From a virus (taxonomy: Duplodnaviria > Caudoviricetes), in IMG/VR virus record IMGVR_UViG_3300008050_000051, positions 1 through 54,209 of that record: a stretch of 54,209 nucleotides of DNA; one strand, given 5' to 3'. Position 1 is the stretch's first letter, and each line of letters opens with the position of its first letter. This document shows, piece after piece, positions 1 through 12,571 of this stretch. The translations under genes were made by a program, and so were the position numbers. The notes beneath the pieces were generated by a model. The model had not been told where the DNA came from and ran no database searches. It saw nothing but the letters and a program-made list of their open reading frames with translations.

Positions 1-60
1 CGCAGCCGCAGCGCAAGCTCATCATGATACAATTTTTGGAACTGGAGAAGAGGAATAATT

Positions 61-192
61 ATGAAACTTGAAATGACTGACAAGTGGGTTCACCGAGCCC
101 TGATCGCGTTCTTAGGCTTTGGTGCCTGTTCTTACGGGTGCATGTTTGTCACCTACGTCTTGTGGTTCATGGGAGTAATTGAGGGGCAGTAA
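61..192 (+). CDS. small hydrophobic (membrane) protein, 43 aa
   Basis: ATG at 61 after GAGG; MKLEMTDKWVHRALIAFLGFGACSYGCMFVTYVLWFMGVIEGQ; stop overlaps next ATG (TAATG). Confidence 0.55.
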   Translation: MKLEMTDKWVHRALIAFLGFGACSYGCMFVTYVLWFMGVIEGQ

Positions 193-2678: not shown

Positions 2679-3251
2679 ATGCTAAAAAATACAATAAGAA
2701 ACTTACTGTTCTTGATTGGGATAGGAATATTAGGAGTAAGCTGTAGTCAAAATAGCGCACCCTCAGATGATGATGATGGTGGTGGGGATGATCCTCCCCG
2801 ACCTCCTGTGTACGATCACGACGAAGAGGAACCGAATGATGAACTCTTTGATGCTCAATTTATTGCAGTCCTTCCTAACTTCGCTGGCCCCGAAGTAATT
2901 CTAGGAGAGCATTGGATTCCTTATGACCCAGACTGTTATCAGTTTTGGCTTGACCCAAGTATGTCACACCCTTCTATTCATGTTAGCATTAATTTACTAA
3001 CAGACTCTATTCTTTCACCCAAAATTAAACTTTGGCAAACCACATATGATTCGGTAGGCAACCCTGACGGACATATCCTTAGAGGTACTTGGGTGGGACA
3101 AGATGGGCATTTATTTATTGACGCTTTTGAAGTTGAATATGGAGGTCTTCTTGTTGATAACGACCTGATTATTGAACTTATCCCATGGGGTGGCATCGCA
3201 GACCTAGAATTACTCGATGATGAATACTTACTAGAATTTTGGAGCAACTAA
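2679..3251 (+). CDS. putative lipoprotein (acidic)
   Basis: Start at ATG 2679 gives signal peptide MLKNTIRNLLFLIGIGILGVS-C with lipobox-like Cys, then a DDDDGGGDDPP linker. Confidence 0.7.
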   Translation: MLKNTIRNLLFLIGIGILGVSCSQNSAPSDDDDGGGDDPPRPPVYDHDEEEPNDELFDAQFIAVLPNFAGPEVILGEHWIPYDPDCYQFWLDPSMSHPSIHVSINLLTDSILSPKIKLWQTTYDSVGNPDGHILRGTWVGQDGHLFIDAFEVEYGGLLVDNDLIIELIPWGGIADLELLDDEYLLEFWSN

Positions 3252-3589
3252 TGTGCTATAGACCATTACCCGATAGCCTAACAATCAAAAAGTCAAGAAT
3301 AGAGGGATTAGGACTGTTCGCAAAAGAATTTATTAAAAAAGAAACAGAACTAGGAATCTCCCATTACTACTTTGAAGATGATTTGATTAGAACTCCACTA
3401 GGAGGGTTTTATAACCACTCAGATGCACCAAATTGCTACTCTAAAACAAAAGTTACCGAGACAGGAATAGATGAGGTAATCCTAATCACAGGAAGAGATA
3501 TTCAAGCAGGAGAAGAGATTACAACCTACTATATCATACAACCACTACCACTACCTAATCATGACAAAAAACACGCCATTTCAAAATGA
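3251..3589 (+). CDS. SET-domain protein (putative lysine methyltransferase)
   Basis: SRIEGLGLFA, GFYNHSDAPNC and RDIQAGEEITTYY are canonical SET motifs; ATG 3251 overlaps upstream TAA. Confidence 0.85.
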   Translation: MCYRPLPDSLTIKKSRIEGLGLFAKEFIKKETELGISHYYFEDDLIRTPLGGFYNHSDAPNCYSKTKVTETGIDEVILITGRDIQAGEEITTYYIIQPLPLPNHDKKHAISK

Positions 3590-3873: not shown

Positions 3874-4437
3874 ATGTATGAAGATTTTAAAATAAAAAGT
3901 ATAGTACTTAAACAATTCATCTGTACCAAACGTGATGTGGAGCTGCAAGATCAGAATCTATCTCTTTTTCGGCAGACAAAGAAACTACTATATGAAGAAT
4001 TCCCAGACCATGAAGATACTGATCTAGAAGAACAATACAAATGGATAGTAATAGCTACGAAAGATAGTGAAGTGGTGGGAGTAATAACAGCTAATAAGTA
4101 TATCCCTAAGAAAGCACTATTATGTGATATCGTAGTAAAGAAAAGCTATAGATCCAAAGGTATAGGTATAAAACTATTAAAGGGTATGGGAATAGAATTG
4201 AGGAGAGAAGGGTATACACACCTGTTAGGATTTACACCTAAAAAGTCAAAAGATGCACTTAGTACATATAAGAGGGTTCATACAAAACAAGAAGAGATGA
4301 TTGTTACTACTAGTGAACTGGATATTAGTATTGCACATATAGAACAGCTAGAAATGAGATTGATAAGTAGGGAGGATAGGAGGAAAAAGAGGTTGGAAAG
4401 GGATAGTAAGGGAGTAACAACCAAAAAGTCAAATTAG
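3874..4437 (+). CDS. GNAT-family acetyltransferase
   Basis: Acetyl-CoA-binding motif A IVVKKSYRSKGIGIKLL; EVVGVI strand. Confidence 0.75.
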   Translation: MYEDFKIKSIVLKQFICTKRDVELQDQNLSLFRQTKKLLYEEFPDHEDTDLEEQYKWIVIATKDSEVVGVITANKYIPKKALLCDIVVKKSYRSKGIGIKLLKGMGIELRREGYTHLLGFTPKKSKDALSTYKRVHTKQEEMIVTTSELDISIAHIEQLEMRLISREDRRKKRLERDSKGVTTKKSN

Positions 4438-4538
4438 AACAAAGTTTTCACTTTTTTTCTTGAAACTAAACCAAAAAGTCAAATCATTTAGAATTGAGTA
4501 ACAAATAAGTCAATGTACAACCAAAAAGTCAAATTAGA
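4417..4538. repeat. three AACCAAAAAGTCAAAT direct repeats at exact 50-bp spacing in an AT-rich intergenic region
   Basis: CCAAAAAGTC starts at 4421, 4471 and 4521; degenerate copy near 4496-4513. Confidence 0.85.
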
Positions 4539-4820
4539 CTAAATTGAAATTACTGTTTTGCTTGACCCAAAAATAGTAAAAAAACAAATTCAAACACCCG
4601 TTTGAAATTAGCTCCGAGCTTTTTTCAGATTTTGCATGGAATTGGGGGTCAAAACTAAATAATTCCAATTCCGATTTTTTTTCCAAAAACCTCATTTTTG
4701 ACCCCGTAAGAAAGGATTCTCTGAAGTGAAATACTAACTTTTTCCATTTTCAAAAAACCACCTAAATTTATGCTCAAAACTAAATAACAATAATCCAAAG
4801 CTGCGCCTGAAGAGGTACTA

Positions 4821-4858
4821 AAATACCCTCCAAACTAATCCAAGTTTGGAGGGTATTT
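4821..4858. terminator. perfect 16-bp inverted repeat, probable (bidirectional) intrinsic terminator between convergent gene blocks
   Basis: AAATACCCTCCAAACT-aatcca-AGTTTGGAGGGTATTT. Confidence 0.75.
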
Positions 4859-5204: not shown

Positions 5205-5849
5205 TTAGTGTGAGAGAAACCTAACTGTTTTCGATACGCTCCAACATAATCCACAAGCTGCACAGCTTGCGGACTTTTCAGTTTGTTCCGGGCAGACAAA
5301 AGACTTGCCCTCGAATGATTCCTCGGCTGCGTAGAGATTAGATCCAGTGTACTCTTTTGAGCGGGAATAGCGAATTACGCAACGCTCCGAGAATTTTCTA
5401 TTTAGCTCCTGGATTGCTTTTCCGATTCGGCTTTCTTCTTCTCTACCAGTGTATCCAAACAAACATAGGGAAGAATACTTCCAAAGCATCTCATCCCAGA
5501 AATTCACATAATCCACGCTATAGAAATCACCTAGAACGTGGAGCCTAATTACAATCCCTTGCGGGTGCTTTTTCATTAGGGCTGCAATTTCAATTTCCAG
5601 CTTATCGGTTAGCCCGTTAGTAGAAAACCTATGGGCGAAAGGCATGTTATTACCGTAACAATCTTCCCAATGATGGCAAGAAGGGGGACACGTTTCCCTT
5701 TCAATCAAAGTGAGAGAGAATAGCTTTTTCCCCCTCCATTTCTTAGATGTAATCTTGAAACCAAGCTTCTTATTATTAGAGCCTTGCTTCAAGATTGTAT
5801 TTCCATCCACGGATCGGATGGATTTCTGAAACCGTGTAGATACTTTCAT
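5205..5849 (-). CDS. Gp88-like Cys-rich protein (radical-SAM-related, putative Fe-S)
   Basis: TCPPSCHHWEDCY, IRLHVLGDF, CPEQ...CAACGLCW; start placed at ATG 5849, 6 nt after a TG-N-TATGCT -10. Confidence 0.65.
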   Translation of the reverse strand: MKVSTRFQKSIRSVDGNTILKQGSNNKKLGFKITSKKWRGKKLFSLTLIERETCPPSCHHWEDCYGNNMPFAHRFSTNGLTDKLEIEIAALMKKHPQGIVIRLHVLGDFYSVDYVNFWDEMLWKYSSLCLFGYTGREEESRIGKAIQELNRKFSERCVIRYSRSKEYTGSNLYAAEESFEGKSFVCPEQTEKSASCAACGLCWSVSKTVRFLSH

Positions 5850-5915
5850 TAGGGTAGCATACCACACTCACGGCCAAAATGGGGGACTAATCCGAGAAAA
5901 GTTCAGAAAGTAGTT

Positions 5916-6031
5916 GTCGTAAGTGCTTGTCCTGTATAGACTTAGGGCCCCGGCCCCGGCGATTTTTGTAAAATCTATGTAAAAAGCCCCCGCTGTTACC
6001 AGCAGGGGCCTAATATATAAATAGTTATAGA
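5916..6031 (-). repeat. cassette junction repeat R1 (core plus terminator half only)
   Basis: Core TAAGTGCTTGTCCTGTATAGACTTAGG at 5920-5946, then GC box, TGTAAAA pair, hairpin 5981-6010. Confidence 0.95.
5981..6010 (-). terminator. intrinsic terminator carried by junction repeats (also in R2 ~7310-7339 and R4 ~10328-10356)
   Basis: Minus strand GGCCCCTGCTG-GTAA-CAGCGGGGGC-TTTTT. Confidence 0.75.
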
Positions 6032-6282
6032 GGTGGAGAGGCTAGAGTAGCGGGACTCACTTTATTACCCGCACCCCATGACAAGCTTCTACGGTGCTTG
6101 CAACCTATGAAACTGTAGTTCATTTCATGAGGCGTTACCTGTGTTTGGGTTCTCTGTCACATTAGACCGTCTTAGGGGTCTCCCCCTTCTCCCTTGTACA
6201 GTTATCCGAGGATACCCTCCAGTTACCGAGGGCATTACCTGATACTCTACTCCAGAGGTTTGCAACCCTCTGAAGTCTCTCC
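6032..6282 (-). ncRNA. candidate ~250-nt structured non-coding RNA
   Basis: No long ORF; terminal pairing GGAGAG/CTCTCC and TAGAGTA/TACTCTA; GNRA-capped hairpins (GCAA, GTAA, GAGA); lies between the mini-tmRNA and the terminator. Confidence 0.55.
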
Positions 6283-6297
6283 GTGTTTTCAATGTGC

Positions 6298-6378
6298 TGG
6301 TGGAGGTGCAGGGAATCGAACCCTGGTCCTAACTAGTTCCCCATGGGGTCTTAGCTAGTCGAACACCATATCACCCCC
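6298..6378 (-). ncRNA. minimal tmRNA-like RNA consisting only of the tRNA-like domain (81 nt)
   Basis: GGGGGTG-ATATGGTGTTCGAC...GAC-CAGGG-TTCGATT-CCCTG-CACCTCC-A-CCA; G3-U70 wobble, A73, encoded CCA, no D-stem; helix 2 closed by a short hairpin. Confidence 0.8.
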
Positions 6379-6455
6379 GAAGGGTGCCCCTTTTCCCGTA
6401 GGGGCCACACGCTTTCTTTTTAGTCGGTCAGGGGCTACCGTCCCGACTCAGAAGC

Positions 6456-6695
6456 CTAGAATCCTTGCGTAGCAAGATATGCCCTTGCATGACCTATATG
6501 CCGCTCACCCTTGCCGTTGTGTTCGAAGGGAAGCGCACGCCGTAGAGATTTGTACGCTTCTAACGCATGATCTGCGGCTTCCATGTTATCAGTTCCTGAG
6601 CGGTAGAGTTCTGCGTAGAGTTCTCCAACTTCAATACTTAGAGTATGGATTTTAGCTAGGAGGGTGGGTTGAGAAATGTTTTGTGTCTTATTCAT
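6456..6695 (-). CDS. hypothetical cassette protein
   Basis: ORF track; first 50 nt tandemly duplicated upstream. Confidence 0.65.
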   Translation of the reverse strand: MNKTQNISQPTLLAKIHTLSIEVGELYAELYRSGTDNMEAADHALEAYKSLRRALPFEHNGKGERHIGHARAYLATQGF

Positions 6696-6745
6696 TGGAT
6701 TTTAGCTAGGAGGGTGGGTTGAGAAATGTTTTGTGTCTTATTCAT
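6646..6745. repeat. exact 50-bp tandem duplication of a gene start
   Basis: TGGATTTTAGCTAGGAGGGTGGGTTGAGAAATGTTTTGTGTCTTATTCAT at 6646-6695 and 6696-6745. Confidence 0.9.
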
Positions 6746-6944
6746 GGGTGCATTCTACCTCATACTCAGAAAGATGTTCTTTCTTGTAATCTTCCCAGTC
6801 CTCCGCATGACTGGCGGGGTTATCTTCGGAATGATAACCAGCAGAGAATCCAGACGCGAAAGCATCTTCTAGAAGAGTCCGCATTGCCCTAAATGTGACC
6901 CTGAGAAGTTGTTTAGTACTACCTGAAGTGTGTGTCTTATTCAT
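6738..6944 (-). CDS. hypothetical cassette protein
   Basis: ORF track; consensus promoter immediately upstream. Confidence 0.7.
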   Translation of the reverse strand: MNKTHTSGSTKQLLRVTFRAMRTLLEDAFASGFSAGYHSEDNPASHAEDWEDYKKEHLSEYEVECTHE

Positions 6945-6950
6945 GGGTGC

Positions 6951-6979
6951 ATTCTACCTCAGAGGGGAGGATTTGTCAA
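6951..6979 (-). promoter_or_regulatory. sigma70-type promoter, leaderless geometry
   Basis: TTGACA-17nt-TAGAAT-6nt-ATG(6944). Confidence 0.8.
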
Positions 6980-7176
6980 AGGGTTTCCGTGATATTCCAG
7001 AGATAAAGGCTTCTCACAGCGAGGCCCTTAGGCCCAAACCGTAGCCTAGCTCTTTTGTGACGCATAACCCGATAGTGGGCGATTCTTTCTTCTAAGATCC
7101 TGCCGCTGGTTCCCCAACCCTCAGCAGGGGTTAGGCTGAAATGCCAGACGGTGCGTAGTGTGTCTCTTCTGCTCAT
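6976..7176 (-). CDS. hypothetical cassette protein
   Basis: First ORF after the R2 promoter. Confidence 0.6.
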   Translation of the reverse strand: MSRRDTLRTVWHFSLTPAEGWGTSGRILEERIAHYRVMRHKRARLRFGPKGLAVRSLYLWNITETL

Positions 7177-7360
7177 GTTCTCCAGTATATCATACTATCG
7201 GCAGGATGCAAGCCCCAGCAGAGGGGTATTTAGCTTTTCTTGCAATCCTAAGTGCTTGTCCTGTATAGACTTAGGGCCTCGGCCCCGGCGATTTTTGTAA
7301 AATCTATGTAAAAAGCCCCCGCTGTTACCAGCAGGGGCCTAATATATAAATAGTTATAGA
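7174..7360 (-). repeat. cassette junction repeat R2 (terminator + core + promoter)
   Basis: Core 7249-7275; promoter TTGCAT-16-TATACT-7nt-ATG(7176). Confidence 0.95.
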
Positions 7361-7419
7361 AAAAGAGAAGAGGGGGGCGTGGCCTATAACCCAGCACCAC
7401 GCCCCCAAGGGCAACCCTG

Positions 7420-7650
7420 TTACGCACCCATGTAGCGGTGATTTAGCCCGTTACGGGTAACAAACTGGCGGGAGTTTTTATAGGCTCGATTCCACCTAGA
7501 CTTAGCACCCGATAGCGTACCCGTATAGGTATTTTGCCTGGTTTTTAGATCAAAAATTGTATAGACAGCATTAGCCGCGCTGCCATTTCCTACGCGAATC
7601 ATGACGGCCTTAGAATTGGAGCGGACGATCTGGGTAATGTTATTCAGCAT
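7420..7650 (-). CDS. hypothetical cassette protein
   Basis: ORF track; followed by GC hairpin ~7373-7406 with a pyrimidine tail. Confidence 0.65.
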   Translation of the reverse strand: MLNNITQIVRSNSKAVMIRVGNGSAANAVYTIFDLKTRQNTYTGTLSGAKSRWNRAYKNSRQFVTRNGLNHRYMGA

Positions 7651-7719
7651 AATTTTTTGTTTTTTGTTAGAGTAGAGTTTGGGTTGAGAGGGGGAGCGTA
7701 TACTCCCCCAGTGGAAATG

Positions 7720-8094
7720 TCATGCCTCGATTGATTTATCAGGGCTATTTTTGAGGCTTTCTTGGATTAGGGTATCAATTTTTTGGTCTAGTTCTTCAAG
7801 GTCAGATTGTGCGGAGGCTTCTGTGATTTCTGCGGACTGGATCAAGAGATTGATATTTTCGATCCACGCCTCATGTTTCTCGATTCGTGCTATTCCAGAT
7901 TGTGGACCGCTACCCAGGATCTTCTTAGCTTCCCGAAGATCCTTTTGGATTTCTTCCCGCTCATTCATTAGAGCGGTAACTTCTGGGTTATCCAGGGCTC
8001 CTTTTTTTGCTTGCTTTAGCTTTAGACGCTTCAAACGATTCTCAGTTTCAGCGATGATTTCAGCAGGCGTGCGGTGTTTTCTTGTTTCTTTCAT
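7720..8094 (-). CDS. coiled-coil hypothetical protein
   Basis: ORF track; heptad-rich; has its own promoter. Confidence 0.75.
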   Translation of the reverse strand: MKETRKHRTPAEIIAETENRLKRLKLKQAKKGALDNPEVTALMNEREEIQKDLREAKKILGSGPQSGIARIEKHEAWIENINLLIQSAEITEASAQSDLEELDQKIDTLIQESLKNSPDKSIEA

Positions 8095-8100
8095 GGGGAT

Positions 8101-8129
8101 AGTATATCACAGGGATAGGCGGGTGTCAA
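8101..8129 (-). promoter_or_regulatory. sigma70-type promoter, leaderless geometry
   Basis: TTGACA-17nt-TATACT-6nt-ATG(8094). Confidence 0.8.
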
Positions 8130-8158
8130 TGGAGAGGGTGCTATCAGTATGTAAAAGG

Positions 8159-8401
8159 TTATTCGTCAGAAACTCCGAAGACGGAATCCTGGCAGGATTG
8201 GCACATTCCAGAGATGGTGTACTCCTTCTCGGAGAGAGCATCACGGAAGGAGGTAGCGTTACCGCTACAGGTAACACAAGAAGCCTCCGCCACAGCACCG
8301 ATACGGGAAACACCCGTAAGTTTGGAGAGCATAGCCTCCACATCGGAGTTCTTGAAGGTAGCGGAAAGGCTGTAGGGGGCGGTGTTCTGATCGTCTTTCA
8401 T
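8159..8401 (-). CDS. small C4 zinc-finger-like protein
   Basis: CVTC...FRDALSEKEYTISGMCQSCQD; first ORF after the R3 promoter. Confidence 0.7.
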   Translation of the reverse strand: MKDDQNTAPYSLSATFKNSDVEAMLSKLTGVSRIGAVAEASCVTCSGNATSFRDALSEKEYTISGMCQSCQDSVFGVSDE

Positions 8402-8542
8402 GTTCTCCAGTATATCATATTATCGGCAGGATACCAGCCCCAGCAGAGGGGTATTTAGCTTTTCTTGCGGTCGTAAGTGCTTGTCCTGTATAGACTTAGG
8501 GCCTCGGCGCCGGGGCTTTGTGTAAAATCTGTGTAAAAAGCC
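8399..8542 (-). repeat. cassette junction repeat R3 (no terminator hairpin)
   Basis: Core 8474-8500; promoter TGGTAT-16-TATACT-7nt-ATG(8401). Confidence 0.95.
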
Positions 8543-8561
8543 TCCCCAAAATTTTTCAAGC

Positions 8562-8768
8562 CTAATCTTCAGAAAGATCCCAAACTTCGTACTCTTGCAA
8601 ATAAGCTTGCTCCGTATCAAGCTCTAGGATCTTCATGATAGCGGCATGGATGAGGGGATTTTGTTTCTGCCACTGAGCGGCATACTCATCATTCATCCAT
8701 GCCACGCCTTGCTCTAGGTCAAGTTGGTAAGCCGTTGAAAGCTCGTCTTGGATATCTCGTAAATTCAT
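8562..8768 (-). CDS. hypothetical cassette protein
   Basis: C-terminal part of track ORF 8562..9128; ATG 8768 lies directly after the upstream gene's stop. Confidence 0.6.
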   Translation of the reverse strand: MNLRDIQDELSTAYQLDLEQGVAWMNDEYAAQWQKQNPLIHAAIMKILELDTEQAYLQEYEVWDLSED

Positions 8769-8769
8769 A

Positions 8770-9150
8770 CTAAGCCTCTTGGTGCTTATCAGGGAAGGAA
8801 TCGAAATCAGGCTCATCATTGAACCCACACAGGAACAGCGCACGCTCCCAATCAGCGCACTCGACAGCCTTGATGAGATCGCCAAGCTTGCGAATAGAGA
8901 TGTAGCCAACCACATCTTGAGGAATGACCACAAAATGACAGTTGAACCTATCATTAGGCTTGTAGGAACTGTGCGACTCATCGTACATGATAGCCACTTC
9001 CATAGTCTTGGTGAAATCGGCCTCACCATCAAAGGGCAGGCTGTAGTTGTCGCAGTAGTGACCAGCACCAAGACCGAGGGAGAGGATGAAACGGTTATCG
9101 GTGCGAACGTGAAGGTTGCGACCGCCAAGGATTTTCATTGCAGTGTTCAT
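8770..9150 (-). CDS. hypothetical cassette protein
   Basis: ORF track; co-oriented and tightly packed. Confidence 0.65.
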   Translation of the reverse strand: MNTAMKILGGRNLHVRTDNRFILSLGLGAGHYCDNYSLPFDGEADFTKTMEVAIMYDESHSSYKPNDRFNCHFVVIPQDVVGYISIRKLGDLIKAVECADWERALFLCGFNDEPDFDSFPDKHQEA

Positions 9151-9165
9151 ATGTGTATTACGCCC

Positions 9166-9576
9166 TTACTTTAGTAGCTTTACAACCTTCTTCCAGTATT
9201 TTTCCGTAGCTTTTTTGGTGTGCCCCTTAGGGCCTCCATTGTGCATTCTGGCGCACTTCTCAGCATTGAACTTCTTAGGGTTGGTCCATGCCTCCCTAGC
9301 GTACCGCTTCATGTATGCATCTACGATGCGCTTTGCATAAGCCCTGCGGAAGCAGTCCTTGTAAGTGCCCCCGATCCCACTGCGCTCTGTAGCGTCCTGC
9401 CAGTAGGGTTTCCAGATTTGCAGGCAGCCTATGGCCTTACCATTATCACCCACGGCATCGTCACGCCCACTAGACTCTACTTGAATCAGAGCAGTCAGTA
9501 GCTTTTCCTGCTGAGGGGTATAGGTTTGTGCCCAGCAAGGAGTAGCGAGTAGGATCGTAGCAAGTAGGGTTTTCAT
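9166..9576 (-). CDS. secreted lysozyme-like muramidase with i-type (destabilase-like) motifs
   Basis: Signal peptide MKTLLATILLATPCWA; ALIQVESSG (catalytic Glu), GCLQIWKPYWQDA, ARMHNGGPKG. Confidence 0.7.
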   Translation of the reverse strand: MKTLLATILLATPCWAQTYTPQQEKLLTALIQVESSGRDDAVGDNGKAIGCLQIWKPYWQDATERSGIGGTYKDCFRRAYAKRIVDAYMKRYAREAWTNPKKFNAEKCARMHNGGPKGHTKKATEKYWKKVVKLLK

Positions 9577-9583
9577 GTTTTCT

Positions 9584-10192
9584 TTATCGTTTGTTATTTG
9601 CTCTAAGAGCTTCGAGATCAATATTTGCTGATCTGGCTGCGTTGTATGCGTCTCTGGCTGCGGCTGCGAATGCGGATTTGGATTCATTTGCGGCTGCAAG
9701 TCTGGCTGCGGCTTCGACTGCCTCATCGGCTGCGGTCATGTATGCGGATTCTGAACCATGTCGAGAGTATGCGTACGCGAATAAGGCTGCGTTTGCCTTT
9801 TCGGCTGCGGCTGTGAATGCGGATTTGGCTGCGGCTGCGTCTGCGGATTTGGCTGCGGCTGCGTCTGCGGATTTGGCTGCGGCTGCGTCTGCTGCGGCTG
9901 CGTCTGCTGCGGCTGCGTCTCCTGGCGCGTATGCGGCTGTGGTTTCTTCTTGAGTGCTGTCTCTGAGGCAGTCGAAGCCGCACACGCAGCGGCTGCTAAT
10001 TGTCTCGATCAGGTCCTGATCGAGACGGCGCTGGTCCTCCAGCCGTGTAATTCGGGCGTATGCGTCTCGTATCGCTGATCCGGCTACGGTGTATGCGTCT
10101 CTGGCTGCTTTGTATACGTCTCTGGATGCATTGTATACGTTAGCAATATGCCTCTCTTGTTCTTCCATGTTTTGCCTCTCTTGTTCTTTCAT
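9584..10192 (-). CDS. Ala-rich repeat protein (DAAAAKSA repeats)
   Basis: First ORF after the R4 promoter; internal tandem repeats. Confidence 0.65.
   Translation of the reverse strand: MKEQERQNMEEQERHIANVYNASRDVYKAARDAYTVAGSAIRDAYARITRLEDQRRLDQDLIETISSRCVCGFDCLRDSTQEETTAAYAPGDAAAADAAAADAAAAKSADAAAAKSADAAAAKSAFTAAAEKANAALFAYAYSRHGSESAYMTAADEAVEAAARLAAANESKSAFAAAARDAYNAARSANIDLEALRANNKR
9818..9919. repeat. in-frame tandem repeats, 3x24 bp plus 2x15 bp
   Basis: TGCGGATTTGGCTGCGGCTGCGTC x3 (9818-9889), TGCTGCGGCTGCGTC x2 (9890-9919). Confidence 0.9.
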
Positions 10193-10363
10193 GTTCTCCA
10201 GTATATCATATTATCGACAGGATACCACCCCCAGGAGAGGGGTATTTAGCTTTTCTTGCGGTCCTAAGTGCTTGTCCTGTATAGACTTAGGGCCTCGGCC
10301 CCGGCGAATTTTACACAAATTTTACACAAAGCCCCCGCTGTTACCAGCAGGGGCCTAATATAT
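10190..10363 (-). repeat. cassette junction repeat R4 (terminator + inverted TGTAAAA module + core + promoter)
   Basis: Core 10265-10291; promoter TGGTAT-16-TATACT-7nt-ATG(10192). Confidence 0.95.
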
Positions 10364-10381
10364 ATTCCGATTTATACTTTA

Positions 10382-10648
10382 TCAGAGATCCAAGAACCGT
10401 TGTCGAACTCGTCCTAAGATCCCGTTAGTAATATCCCCCCCTGCTGCATTATAAACTACTGCCTCCTGCTCTGGATCCCAGCTCATGGTAAGATCCCCAT
10501 TGTCTACCATAGCGGATAGCAATTGAGAAAGGGCGTACAAATGTAATTCCTCCCATTCCCTTATACACTCATCCCCTTCCTGGGGCTTGTATCCTGTGAG
10601 GAACGCCATTTCCCTTTCCCAAAATTCTATTCTTTCCTGAGTTGACAT
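10382..10648 (-). CDS. hypothetical cassette protein
   Basis: ORF track; TAATG coupling with upstream gene. Confidence 0.65.
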   Translation of the reverse strand: MSTQERIEFWEREMAFLTGYKPQEGDECIREWEELHLYALSQLLSAMVDNGDLTMSWDPEQEAVVYNAAGGDITNGILGRVRQRFLDL

Positions 10649-10833
10649 TATTTTTCCTCTTTATTATCCCAAGCTGGGGACATTTCTTTTAGTAGTTCTT
10701 TCTCGCATGGCACGCAGATTGCTAACCATGACCAATTATCCGATAGATGCCCAGAAGGGAATCTAAGGCCACAAGCATCGCACTCAACCAGGGGAGATAT
10801 TCCTAAATGGTTTTGGGGGTAGGTGCTTCTCAT
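10648..10833 (-). CDS. small Zn-finger-like protein
   Basis: CDAC...CVPC. Confidence 0.6.
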   Translation of the reverse strand: MRSTYPQNHLGISPLVECDACGLRFPSGHLSDNWSWLAICVPCEKELLKEMSPAWDNKEEK

Positions 10834-11073
10834 TTACTCATCCATCGAATCGCAGTAGGTATGAAAATAATCAAAAAATTCTGCATATTCATCCCACTCA
10901 TCCCCCCTTTCGAGATGCTGCTGTTCCTCAATTTTCTTCTGAGCTTCTTGGTCATCCTCCCAAAGCTGGTGTAGTAAATCCTTTACTTCGTCGGGATCAG
11001 GCGTTTCTTCCAACAGGTCTTGGATTTCGAGGTATTCATCTAGTAGGTCTGACGTTGCTTCTAGGTCTTTCAT
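10834..11073 (-). CDS. very acidic small protein
   Basis: D/E-rich; start reassigned to ATG 11073, 7 nt after the -10 TATGAT. Confidence 0.65.
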   Translation of the reverse strand: MKDLEATSDLLDEYLEIQDLLEETPDPDEVKDLLHQLWEDDQEAQKKIEEQQHLERGDEWDEYAEFFDYFHTYCDSMDE

Positions 11074-11208
11074 GTGTTTCATCATACTCTATTATCGGCA
11101 GGATACAAGCCCCAGCAGAAGGGTATTTAGCTTTTCTTGCGGTCGTAAGTGCTTGTCCTGTATAGACTTAGGGCCTCGGCGCCGGGGCTTTGTGTAAAAT
11201 CTGTGTAA
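11071..11208 (-). repeat. cassette junction repeat R5 (no terminator hairpin)
   Basis: Core 11146-11172; promoter TTGTAT-16-TATGAT-7nt-ATG. Confidence 0.95.
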
Positions 11209-11224
11209 AGGTATTAGGGTATCT

Positions 11225-11479
11225 TTACCATCTCCCCCCAGGAGGAAGGTCGGACTCATCAACTCTAGTGGATAGGGGCGAATCAAACCAGAGAACAGAT
11301 CGCCCAATTTTTATACGTTGAGCTATTCGCTCGATGTGCTCAGGAGTTACTCCCCCCTGGCAATCGGCGCATTCATCGAAGGCAGATCTAAGCTCGACAG
11401 TATCCACTACGCCACAACGGCTAGCGGTTCTTACAGCGGTCAGGAAAGCACGGTAGGGGCTGGGCTTGTTTTCTTTCAT
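11225..11479 (-). CDS. hypothetical cassette protein
   Basis: Start reassigned to ATG 11479, 7 nt after TATAAT. Confidence 0.6.
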   Translation of the reverse strand: MKENKPSPYRAFLTAVRTASRCGVVDTVELRSAFDECADCQGGVTPEHIERIAQRIKIGRSVLWFDSPLSTRVDESDLPPGGRW

Positions 11480-11579
11480 GTGTTTCATTATAATATACTT
11501 ATCGACCAGATGTAAGCCCCAGGAGAGGGGTATTTAGCTTTTCTTGAGGTCGTAAGTGCTTGTCCTGTATAGACTTAGG
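11477..11579 (-). repeat. cassette junction repeat R6 (core plus promoter half only)
   Basis: Core 11553-11579; promoter TTACAT-17-TATAAT-7nt-ATG. Confidence 0.95.
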
Positions 11580-11608
11580 ATCGAGCCACCGGAAAATATC
11601 GCGTGAAT

Positions 11609-11759
11609 GGGACTCCTATGTACGGCTACGCGACCTATAGATACCAATACAATATATTCAAGGGACTCCAAAAAAAATTCAAACCTACTTAAAAAAATTC
11701 AAACCTACTTAAAAAAATTCAAACCTACTTAAAAAAAATTTTAAAAAAGTTGGGACTCC
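11609..11759. repeat. 3x20-bp tandem AAAAAAATTCAAACCTACTT (11671-11730) with three GGGACTCC boxes
   Basis: GGGACTCC at 11609, 11662 and 11752; lies at the divergence point between cassette array and late genes. Confidence 0.9.
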
Positions 11760-11782
11760 TTTGAAACTCCCCTAACTATAGT

Positions 11783-12571
11783 ATGAGTAAATTCGGAAAA
11801 ATACCTAGTAACTTCCTATTTGGCAACCCAAATGCACTTTCTGTACCCACACCTGTAGCACAACAAGTAGGTATGGGAGCTAATGTTCAACAAGGTCCGA
11901 CAGGAGGCACGATACCTCCATACATTCAAAGATACACCTACCGCAAACCTAATATAGATTTTTTCTTCTCGGATTTTGAGGTAGAGTTTAATCAATCCCA
12001 TTTAACCCCTGTGAGGATAGAAATATCCACCCCCATGGAGATCACAGAAACAATTGATTTTGAATTGGATTCTAATCAACAGCCTATGGGGTATGGGTGG
12101 GTTCTGAGAGGTCGCCAGAGTAGTGGACTGCCTCCTCTTATAATATTAACCCAACCAGGAGACCCAACTATGAAAGAGTTACGAGAACAGGCTCATCAAG
12201 GGGATGTTCCTGGAGATGTAACCACAACCATAAATGTTAGTAGGCCAGGGGAATTTTCACATAGTCATTTACAGTTTTGGCCTGTAGCTTTTAAAGAAGT
12301 TTGGGGGACGGGGGTAATAGGACATCAAGGCTACAATGACCAGCACTCATTCATTGTGTCCCACATTCTTCAAGATGATCCAGCGGGTAGTGTTAGTTTT
12401 TCCCTTACGGATCCATCGGTTATATCAAGTTTTGTTGGAACAGGGGTGGTTAGGCTTGATTTTTCTTTATACCATTCAGGGTATATTCCAGATTTATACA
12501 GTAGCGTTGGGGCGTGGCTAGTTAGATTTCAGTTTGCTTGTCCTATTACGGTTACTTATTACTATCAGTAG
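11783..12571 (+). CDS. hypothetical protein (possibly virion-associated)
   Basis: 262-aa ORF. Confidence 0.7.
   Translation: MSKFGKIPSNFLFGNPNALSVPTPVAQQVGMGANVQQGPTGGTIPPYIQRYTYRKPNIDFFFSDFEVEFNQSHLTPVRIEISTPMEITETIDFELDSNQQPMGYGWVLRGRQSSGLPPLIILTQPGDPTMKELREQAHQGDVPGDVTTTINVSRPGEFSHSHLQFWPVAFKEVWGTGVIGHQGYNDQHSFIVSHILQDDPAGSVSFSLTDPSVISSFVGTGVVRLDFSLYHSGYIPDLYSSVGAWLVRFQFACPITVTYYYQ

Follow-up and report, generated by a model that had tools for sequence, protein, structure and literature searches.

What does it mean that a run of small phage genes is parted, six times over, by one and the same short palindrome? The question is raised by the IMG/VR virus record IMGVR_UViG_3300008050_000051, a linear sequence of 54,209 bp that CheckV rates as 48% complete and that was analysed here over its whole length (the window). 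Between positions 5,920 and 11,579 five gene cassettes are joined at copies of a 27-bp core, and a first-pass annotation had taken this layout for an integron-like system with the core as a site-specific recombination site. Our results point to a different answer. With a probability of about 0.6, in our estimate, the repeated units are terminator-operator-promoter modules for leaderless early genes that resemble the promoter/stem-loop repeats (PeSLs) of T4-type phages; the core would be the site of a putative dimeric or DNA-bending regulator, and the cassettes would be shuffled by homologous recombination.

An exact search placed the core, TAAGTGCTTGTCCTGTATAGACTTAGG on the plus strand, at 5920, 7249, 8474, 10265, 11146 and 11553, as the first-pass annotation had reported, and the inverted arms TAAGT-N15-ACTTA are present in every copy. 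The window holds no further copy with up to three mismatches, and 100 shuffles gave 0 matches; the six cores are a real observation, far beyond chance. All genes of the array region lie on the minus strand, on which the core reads CCTAAGTCTATACAGGACAAGCACTTA. Alignment, in which the repeats around the cores extend 99-176 nt and the units measure about 150 bp, also bears out the order of parts that had been proposed for the junctions on this strand: terminator, TTTTACA (TGTAAAA on the other strand), GC box, core, spacer, sigma70-type promoter and ATG. The parts are as follows (L and G numbers are our handles for related or compared sequences).

5920..5946, minus strand: core R1, exact match, with the 25-bp dyad at 5920-5944; the array's last unit, before a GP88-like gene
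7249..7275, minus strand: core R2, exact match
8474..8500, minus strand: core R3, exact match
10265..10291, minus strand: core R4, exact match
11146..11172, minus strand: core R5, exact match
11553..11579, minus strand: core R6, first unit of the array; upstream GGAGTCCC..TTCACGCGA..CCGGTGGC conserved with the first unit of the relative L009
5981..6010, minus strand: predicted intrinsic terminator of unit R1, hairpin and T run; identical copies at about 7310-7339 (R2) and 10326-10355 (R4)
5947..5980, minus strand: GC box GCCGGGGCCGGGGC and TTTTACA module of unit R1, with counterparts beside R2-R5
7174..7248, minus strand: spacer and sigma70-type promoter of R2, with TTGCAT, 16-17 nt, TG-n-TATACT at 7189-7184, 7 nt, and ATG at 7176
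8399-8473 (R3), 10190-10264 (R4), 11071-11145 (R5) and 11477-11552 (R6), minus strand: equivalent promoter segments
5847-5919, minus strand: promoter of R1, non-homologous to the others, with TG-n-TATGCT, 6 nt, and ATG at 5849

Internal units carry one or two TTTTACA words, and the intrinsic terminator, GGCCCCTGCTGGTAACAGCGGGGGCTTTTT, is found at R1, R2 and R4 and is weak or absent at R3 and R5. From the core to the -35 box runs a spacer of 37 nt that includes a small CCCC..GGGG hairpin. The -35-like hexamers are TTGCAT in R2 and TTACAT in R6, with weaker ones in R3-R5; the -10 boxes are TATACT in R2-R4, TATGAT in R5 and TATAAT in R6, and a TG stands before the box in R1-R4 but not in R5 and R6. 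Each cassette thus has a promoter of its own, and the description of the units as self-contained and expression-ready was right. Two further promoters, at 8129-8101 and 6979-6951, are predicted within cassettes and have no core. The outermost copies had been described as half-elements, which is correct in outline, except that R1 keeps 4 nt (CGAC) past the core and the upstream side of R6 a faint CCGG..GGC..CGA..CC pattern. Likewise the core is indeed invariant amid variable flanks, yet the invariant block of the internal units exceeds 27 bp: it comprises CCGAGGC and the core, then three polymorphic positions, then 20 invariant nt. Despite a spacer that is unrelated to those of R2-R6, R1 keeps a distance of 58 nt from the dyad to the -10 box (59-60 in the others).

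On the opposite strand, four hairpins with a T-rich run resemble terminators (plus strand, 7212-7227, 8437-8452, 10227-10243 and 11516-11531). They are antisense to the genes, lie between the core and the -35 box, and may stop antisense read-through.

The promoters sit unusually close to the genes. Of 36 units, taken from the window and five relatives, 30 have a TAnnnT box with an ATG 6-7 nt behind it that begins an open reading frame (ORF) of at least 30 aa, and all five units that were read in the longer relative G008 have the same geometry. A leader cannot be fitted into so short a gap, and translation of each cassette's first gene therefore probably proceeds on a leaderless mRNA.

We then asked how far the core is conserved. 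A search with the 214-aa GP88-like protein, whose gene follows the array, yielded nine related viral loci (42-69% identity), and dyad arrays lie upstream of the gene in six of them (L007, L009, L010, L011, L012 and L013); the dyad is absent from L008, L014 and L015. The units of these relatives consist of a GC-rich hairpin, then a 25-bp TAAGT-N15-ACTTA dyad, then a TTGACA/TTGCAT-N17-(TG)TATAAT promoter. Seven dyads in the same synteny occur in G008 at 30.9-36.8 kb. In L009, L011, L012 and part of G008 each unit has two dyads, 51-53 bp apart, flanking the GC hairpin. The 29 distinct promoter-proximal dyads give the consensus ccTAAGTCCTTat-N5-CAAGGACTTAcGAC, and by this alignment the core of the window is a local version of a 25-bp 10-5-10 palindrome, TAAGTSCTTG-N5-CAAGSACTTA, with a perfect arm on the promoter side (CAAGCACTTA) and a weak one on the other (TAAGTCTATA).

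The exact core was found in no IMG/VR contig besides the window and in ten metagenome contigs. Some of these are only 82-91% identical to the window around the units and still hold exact cores; having been retrieved with the exact core, they offer only their second and third cores as independent evidence. The dyad is confined to the arrays: all six sites of the window lie within 5.7 kb of its 54 kb, and the same restriction is seen in two phages that share little else with it. A scan of IMG/VR for the perfect palindrome gave 24 stretches, many of them in arrays. Among the records concerned are G014 (200,094 bp, rated 100% complete), with 11 of 11 dyads within 179.8-189.0 kb, and G016 (137,718 bp, likewise rated 100% complete), with 16 of 16 within 93.2-106.2 kb; a reversed pattern, used as control, gave 0. 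The units of these arrays run from a distal dyad through a GC hairpin, a proximal dyad and an A/T-rich spacer to TTGACT/TTGACA-N17--10, with an ATG after 4-7 nt.

No homologue of the window's portal protein was found in five dyad-bearing records including G014 and G016, and a blastp search of the ORFs of at least 50 aa from the window and G005-G008 against G014 and G016 gave four matches. G014, whose tape-measure protein has 4,218 aa and whose tail fibre is J-like, appears from its genes to be siphovirus-like; its J-like protein had only distant matches, to phages of Proteobacteria, when used for host inference. A blastn search with a unit of the sequence L200 matched no cultured phage. Since unrelated phages share the design, either a single host protein recognises the site in all of them or the module is itself passed from phage to phage; for the same reason a host protein is somewhat likelier than a phage protein as the binder. 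One could go further and picture the dyad-hairpin-dyad-leaderless-promoter module as a portable adaptor used by unrelated myo- and siphophages of one host group, read by one host protein (IHF-like or other) that licenses a leaderless early burst. As all such phages would carry this adaptor of roughly 100 bp, unrelated phages in one co-infected cell could trade expression-ready accessory cassettes across lineages by homology and with no integrase. This broader picture we hold to be doubtful, though worth stating.

Perfect palindromes also occur in bacterial genomes, in 75 stretches. Most of these (among L124-L198) read TAAGTCCTTG-N5-CAAGGACTTA plus a T run directly behind tRNA genes, in many Spirochaetia, often at the same locus in relatives, and in some Bacteroidota, Firmicutes and Alphaproteobacteria. 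We considered them as a clue to the host and judged them to be terminators, uninformative in that respect. Four short contigs of metagenome-assembled genomes with at least three dyads each (L146, L188, L193 and L196) look phage-like; L146 and L193 have units of the phage design with dyad pairs, and in L193 an ATG directly follows a -10 box. Probably these are phage sequences that were binned along with bacterial ones, and the bins, assigned to Enterobacterales, Flavobacteriaceae, Steroidobacteraceae and Planctomycetota, are possible hints at hosts.

It is conceivable that the dyad works not as double-stranded DNA but as a hairpin of RNA or single-stranded DNA, one that ends or attenuates transcription, is processed by an RNase or serves as a signal for replication. 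Many of the other phages do have a perfect 10-bp stem with a 5-nt loop beside the GC hairpin, and the palindrome behind bacterial tRNA genes, with its T run, looks like a terminator. In the window, though, the arms pair over only 5 bp around a 15-nt loop, and dyads of mixed arms, in which TAAGTCCTTG meets CAAGCACTTA with a C-C clash, are common. The letters of the arms are conserved and do not covary, and no T run follows the dyad in the phage units. Judged by its arms, then, the dyad is conserved as a sequence and not as a hairpin, and we regard the hairpin explanation as the least probable of those considered here.

A second possibility is that the core has no function at all and is simply the best-kept stretch of a terminator-promoter repeat that gene conversion homogenizes, its palindromic ends being incidental. 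Gene conversion is clearly active in these repeats, and the invariant block of the internal units extends past the core. What makes this very unlikely is that a palindrome with the same half-site letters recurs in relatives whose flanks cannot be aligned, and in unrelated phages as well, and that both terminal half units of the window keep exactly the core.

Is the core, then, a recombination site? If it were, a recombinase whose gene lies in the part of the genome not covered by the record, or one of a novel family, would bind the arms and exchange strands at the centre of the core, and cassettes would move as circles. The layout invites this reading. Arms of 9-10 bp around a centre of 5-7 bp match the core sites of tyrosine recombinases; all six sites of the window are asymmetric and in direct orientation, from which excision is expected; and the array resembles an integron in being a tandem row of gene cassettes parted by a repeated imperfect palindrome, in an order that varies between relatives. 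Integron cassettes lack promoters and rely on one Pc promoter that they share; their attC sites are long, imperfect palindromes that vary in sequence and are conserved in their fold. Here, in contrast, each unit has by its sequence a sigma70-type promoter of its own and mostly a terminator too, and the dyad is a 25-bp element conserved in sequence. An integron also has an IntI-type tyrosine recombinase beside its array. The first-pass annotation had seen no recombinase in the window, and we found none either: Phage_integrase (PF00589) and Resolvase (PF00239) gave 0 matches in 16 records, namely the window, nine relatives (16-69% complete) and six other dyad-bearing phages, among them the complete G014 and G016 with their 11 and 16 dyads. 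The families rve (PF00665) and Y1 transposase (PF01797) had no match in the five records searched for them (G000 and G005-G008). That the window is only 48% complete leaves some room for such a gene, as would a recombinase family not yet recognised.

The order of the cassettes does differ between relatives, as had been predicted. After clustering of the array ORFs into families by blastp, the window reads ... fam12, fam6+3+5, fam4, GP88; L007 reads fam4, fam6, fam14, fam3+15, fam16, GP88; L011 reads fam3+5, fam6, GP88; and L013 reads fam15, fam16, fam14, GP88. Among the ten contigs with exact cores, seven are colinear with the window, one of them with an apparent third copy of a 50-bp tandem described below, L018 has internal indels, and L021 and L024 carry the pair of fam12 and the 68-aa gene at another position of the array. 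The shared cassette genes are 35-68% identical, against 55-69% for the backbone gene; being no more alike than the backbone, they give no sign of recent transfer between these phages, a point against the integron-like reading.

The decisive point is where the exchanges fall. An integron confines crossover to its site, and breakpoints within the core had been expected; they are scattered over the whole repeat instead. A four-gamete test on 11 distinct internal units gave at least four exchange intervals, counted from the start of the core as (-17..27), (27..56), (56..65) and (80..90), of which three lie outside it. Incompatible pairs of sites number 39 wholly downstream of the core, 53 across it and 0 upstream; the 53, which show that the flanks of the core have different histories, would also fit exchange at the core, and the 39 would not. 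Two contigs assembled by Logan from public runs join R1- or R2-type to R4-type sequence within a shared 37-nt terminator hairpin (such contigs break at every repeat). In front of the 202-aa gene stands an R4-type promoter in the window and an R5-type one in L022, L024 and L025; the changeover lies at the start codon. One unit of L012 has the inner part of its dyad inverted while the cassette is unchanged. The stepped distance of the dyad from the promoter, and the presence of two dyads per unit in many phages, also speak against a recombination site. One observation does suit it: an emptied mini-unit of L024 keeps the left 17 nt of the core and is broken exactly at the dyad centre. Taken together, an integron-like mechanism is not supported, and we consider it highly improbable.

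The pattern is what general homologous recombination and gene conversion produce when they act on the entire repeat, a mechanism proposed for PeSLs too, so that the cassettes would have been reshuffled because the repeated modules of about 150 bp serve as substrates for both. A RecA/UvsX-like gene is present in G008. Rearrangement is also visible inside the units: the 23-bp TTTTACAC module of R4 (10306-10338) is inverted relative to those of R3 (8509-8538) and R5 (11181-11209). The inverted TTTTACAC-TTTTACAC stretch includes the adjoining GGGGC/GCCCC, the inverted repeats are 93% complementary, and one public-run contig has the R2-type orientation at the position of the R4 module.

If the core is not a recombination site, what might read it? 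We propose that an uncultured marine myophage, with a T4-type portal and baseplate and only distant kin among cultured phages, has its early, ORFan-rich genes arrayed in this region, and that the terminator or GC hairpin of each module would close the preceding cassette. A dimeric or DNA-bending protein would bind the dyad on the same face of the helix as RNA polymerase and could switch all early promoters together, either as an early boost or as a later shut-off. The placement of the dyad is suggestive of this: the distance from its end to the -10 box falls into classes of 38, 44, 48-50, 55-56, 58-60, 66-67 and 105 nt, of which 38, 48-50, 58-60 and 66-67 form a series with steps of about 10 bp and 44, 55-56 and 105 lie off it. 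A Rayleigh test on 18 distance classes, which were chosen by us and are not fully independent, gave p = 0.004-0.01 for a period of 10-11 bp, with 0.75% of random sets doing equally well.

Several points weigh against this proposal, beginning with the way the classes for the phasing test were chosen. With the A of the ATG as +1, the dyad centre of the window lies at about -85, an unusual place for a simple repressor. An activator in turn seems unnecessary, since the promoters of the window look strong by themselves and the two predicted promoters within cassettes have no dyad. All 27 bp are invariant in the window, asymmetric centre included, which is more than a symmetric dimer needs; this invariance could reflect concerted evolution or an asymmetric reader. 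The break of the L024 mini-unit at the dyad centre, described above, also counts against it. Finally, no binder stands out among the genes. A Pfam search assigned the ten small cassette ORFs to no family and found no helix-turn-helix (HTH) in them; three Pfam analyses of the ORFs of the window gave no classical DNA-binding domain; and a phage HU/IHF gene, which we had considered as the source of the binder and set aside, occurs in only 1 of 22 records. Host IHF has its own difficulty: its consensus, WATCAANNNNTTR (available text of PMC9452768), is matched by 0 of 23 dyads of the window's family, the best arm in the window agreeing, by eye, in 6 of 9 specified letters.

Host IHF nonetheless deserves mention as a lead. 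It is a DNA-bending protein that acts upstream of a phage early promoter, an IHF site being described, in the part of PMC3820752 available, as affecting the early promoter Pe of Mu. Every dyad arm here carries CAA-N4-TTA, and the IHF consensus occurs in 57 of 100 distinct dyads of other phages, in 5 of them on both strands, although the CAA-N4-TTA part was built into the pattern with which those dyads were sought. Known IHF sites are asymmetric, unlike the dyad. Resemblances to CIRCE, FNR and CRP sites were also considered and dropped, as the order or spacing of the arms does not fit, and the half-site strings were met in the literature only as unrelated primer matches.

The core might instead be a promoter or specificity element for a second mode of transcription, through a modified host polymerase, a phage sigma factor or an activator, giving later transcripts with leaders. 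Invariance of an asymmetric 27-mer is typical of phage-specific promoters such as those of the T7 type, and a half-site lies near a -10-like box in L008 and in the half unit of L024. The strong half-site also holds TGCTT, given in the text seen of PMC4122927 as the core of the MotA box of T4; this MotA reading we rejected for the window, where no -10-like box stands at a fitting distance from the core. Dyad symmetry, conserved across phages, is moreover needless in a promoter, the resulting leaders would be without a Shine-Dalgarno sequence in most units, and searches with some of the window ORFs, though not with every one, brought no phage RNA polymerase to notice. We consider this explanation quite unlikely and keep a regulator site within a PeSL-like module as the preferred one.

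The comparison with PeSLs, which the first-pass annotation had also drawn, is apt. As far as PMC2839356 and PMC4122927 could be consulted, both systems are composite motifs of about 100 bp made of a terminator and a sigma70 promoter, repeated between ORFans in a plastic region of a T4-related myophage, whose neighbouring genes are gained, lost and reordered and are exchanged by homologous recombination. The near-consensus sigma70 promoter of PeSLs has a counterpart here, by sequence, in TTGCAT/TTGACA-N16-18-(TG)TATACT/TATAAT, and the stem-loop in the hairpin with T run at R1, R2 and R4 and in the GC-rich hairpin beside the dyad in all relatives. They differ in that a conserved palindrome of 25-27 bp stands between stem-loop and promoter only here (the string "palindrom" is absent from the text of PMC4122927 that was available, and no such site is described in the PeSL sections consulted), and in that PeSLs end with a Shine-Dalgarno sequence, according to the legend of Fig. 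2 in PMC2839356, whereas here the ATG follows 6-7 nt after the -10 box. The array is also some 10 GC points richer than the rest of the phage.

Regulator p4 of phage phi29 acts from about -82. Its site, in the portion of PMC3100819 seen, is CTTTTT-15 bp-AAAATG, an imperfect inverted repeat of about 27 bp that occurs twice per control region. The sites lie upstream of host-type promoters, as here, and are paired, as in L009, L011, L012, G014 and G016; the p4 dimer bends DNA and acts on RNA polymerase, and an analogous binder is what we propose. The sequences are unrelated, and p4 serves one early/late switch region rather than a dozen repeated cassettes; a p4-like gene was not noticed here, no search aimed at one having been made. 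Repressors of the Aca type likewise act on a shared palindrome at strong promoters of small early ORFans (PMC11065993, consulted in part). Their operators overlie the promoter and belong to early anti-defence loci, whereas the dyad lies about 50-60 nt upstream of the -10 box, at small ORFans, and no Aca-like HTH gene was found by Pfam in the cassettes of the window.

In comparison with the literature found, the conserved dyad, its stepped placement, the putative leaderless starts, the GC-rich arrays and the recurrence in unrelated phages appear to be new; no description of the dyad was found in papers on PeSLs, leaderless early promoters and phage tmRNA (supplements lay outside the search). 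If the dyad is a true operator, it marks the whole early regulon of a large and widespread group of uncultured marine phages and points to one factor, of phage or host, that controls these genes. A simple pattern would then find early genes of host takeover and possibly of anti-defence, in unrelated phages too. The units further suggest leaderless translation as the rule for the first genes of cassettes. They extend beyond the classical T4-likes the PeSL idea that genes are shuffled with their own regulatory signals, and they indicate that an integron-looking layout can arise without a site-specific recombinase.

The cassettes and the gene at the end of the array are listed in the order of transcription.

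11225..11479, minus strand: cassette R6-R5, one ORFan gene, 84 aa from the ATG that is homologous to other units
10382..11073, minus strand: cassette R5-R4, three ORFan genes of 79, 61 and 88 aa
8562..10192, minus strand: cassette R4-R3, a 202-aa Ala-rich repeat protein, a lysozyme, a 126-aa gene (fam12) and a 68-aa gene
9166-9576, minus strand: the secreted destabilase/SLT-like lysozyme of cassette R4-R3
7420..8401, minus strand: cassette R3-R2, genes of 80 aa (fam6), 124 aa (fam3, with the internal promoter 8129-8101) and 76 aa (fam5)
6298..7176, minus strand: cassette R2-R1, genes of 66 aa, 68 aa (with the internal promoter 6979-6951) and 79 aa (fam4), and a gene resembling tmRNA (transfer-messenger RNA)
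5205..5849, minus strand: GP88-family gene, 214 aa, the conserved neighbour at the array end in all nine related loci

Homology between units places the true starts of the first two cassettes at the ATGs at 11479 and 11073. The GP88-like protein was considered as a recombinase or regulator. Its AlphaFold2 model is an alpha/beta fold of moderate quality (mean confidence score pLDDT 61.9); Foldseek found nothing in the PDB for the model at E <= 0.001, radical-SAM enzymes heading the weak matches, and a search of the Atlas with the protein gave GP88 clusters only. No recombinase was matched, and we assign no function to the protein.

The tmRNA-like gene (6298-6378, minus strand, 81 nt) consists of the tRNA-like domain only. 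The Rfam tmRNA model matches it with 67.5 bits over model positions 1-374, with the entire middle missing, and ARAGORN makes no call on it. Its predicted fold has a 7-bp acceptor stem with G-U at position 3, a capped hairpin, a T arm and CCA, and it may be an alanine-accepting mimic that lacks the tag template. Such a 3' end lies directly before the last array unit in L007, L012, L018 and G008 too. Marine T4-likes are known to have complete phage tmRNAs placed behind early promoters, as the section seen of PMC9004378 describes.

In the same cassette, the ATG of the 79-aa fam4 gene marks the start of a 50-bp tandem duplication (6646-6745). Its first copy retains a putative leaderless promoter, TTGACA-17-TAGAAT-gcaccc-ATG; the frame that starts from it stops, as read by eye, after about 17-18 codons, and the full fam4 gene starts 50 nt further on. 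There are two copies in the window, and L017, which is 50 bp longer across the interval, seems to have a third. The number of copies may switch the fam4 gene on and off.

As to the phage itself, the gene products of the window include a large terminase subunit, a T4-type portal, a helicase, a baseplate wedge protein and a glycosyltransferase, and Pfam also finds a T4 baseplate protein among its ORFs. Among cultured phages the portal is best matched by Microcystis phage Mel-JY01 (35% identity), with T4-like cyanophages next (27%), and it has 183 related stretches in IMG/VR, of which the 80 kept are 71-90% identical. A megablast of the array against cultured phages found no match. The public runs that hold the array are marine metagenomes, with no RNA run listed among them. 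The phage thus belongs to a large group of uncultured marine myophages distant from T4.

The array differs from its surroundings in composition. Its GC content is 48.7% (5947-11552) against 38.2% in the rest of the window, and in L007, L009, L011, L012, L013 and G008 it is 49-53% against 39-44% elsewhere, so that in all seven phages the array lies about 5-10 GC points above the rest. This excess could stem from GC-biased gene conversion in a highly recombining region, or the genes may have another origin.

Upstream of the first unit, a divergent control region (11600-11760) holds three exact 20-bp tandem copies of AAAAAAATTCAAACCTACTT and three GGAGTCCC words; for the 262-aa gene at 11783 next to it no relatives were found. 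GGAGTCCC, which occurs at the same place in L007, in G007 and, as a perfect palindrome, in L009, is probably a second regulatory site. On the far side of the array, genes for a SET-domain protein (3239-3589) and a GNAT acetyltransferase (3874-4437) are adjacent on the plus strand. They are followed by three copies of AATTTGACTTTTTGGTT at 4440-4560, in a gap of about 430 bp between convergent genes, and these adjoin a putative bidirectional terminator with a 16-bp stem at 4821-4858.

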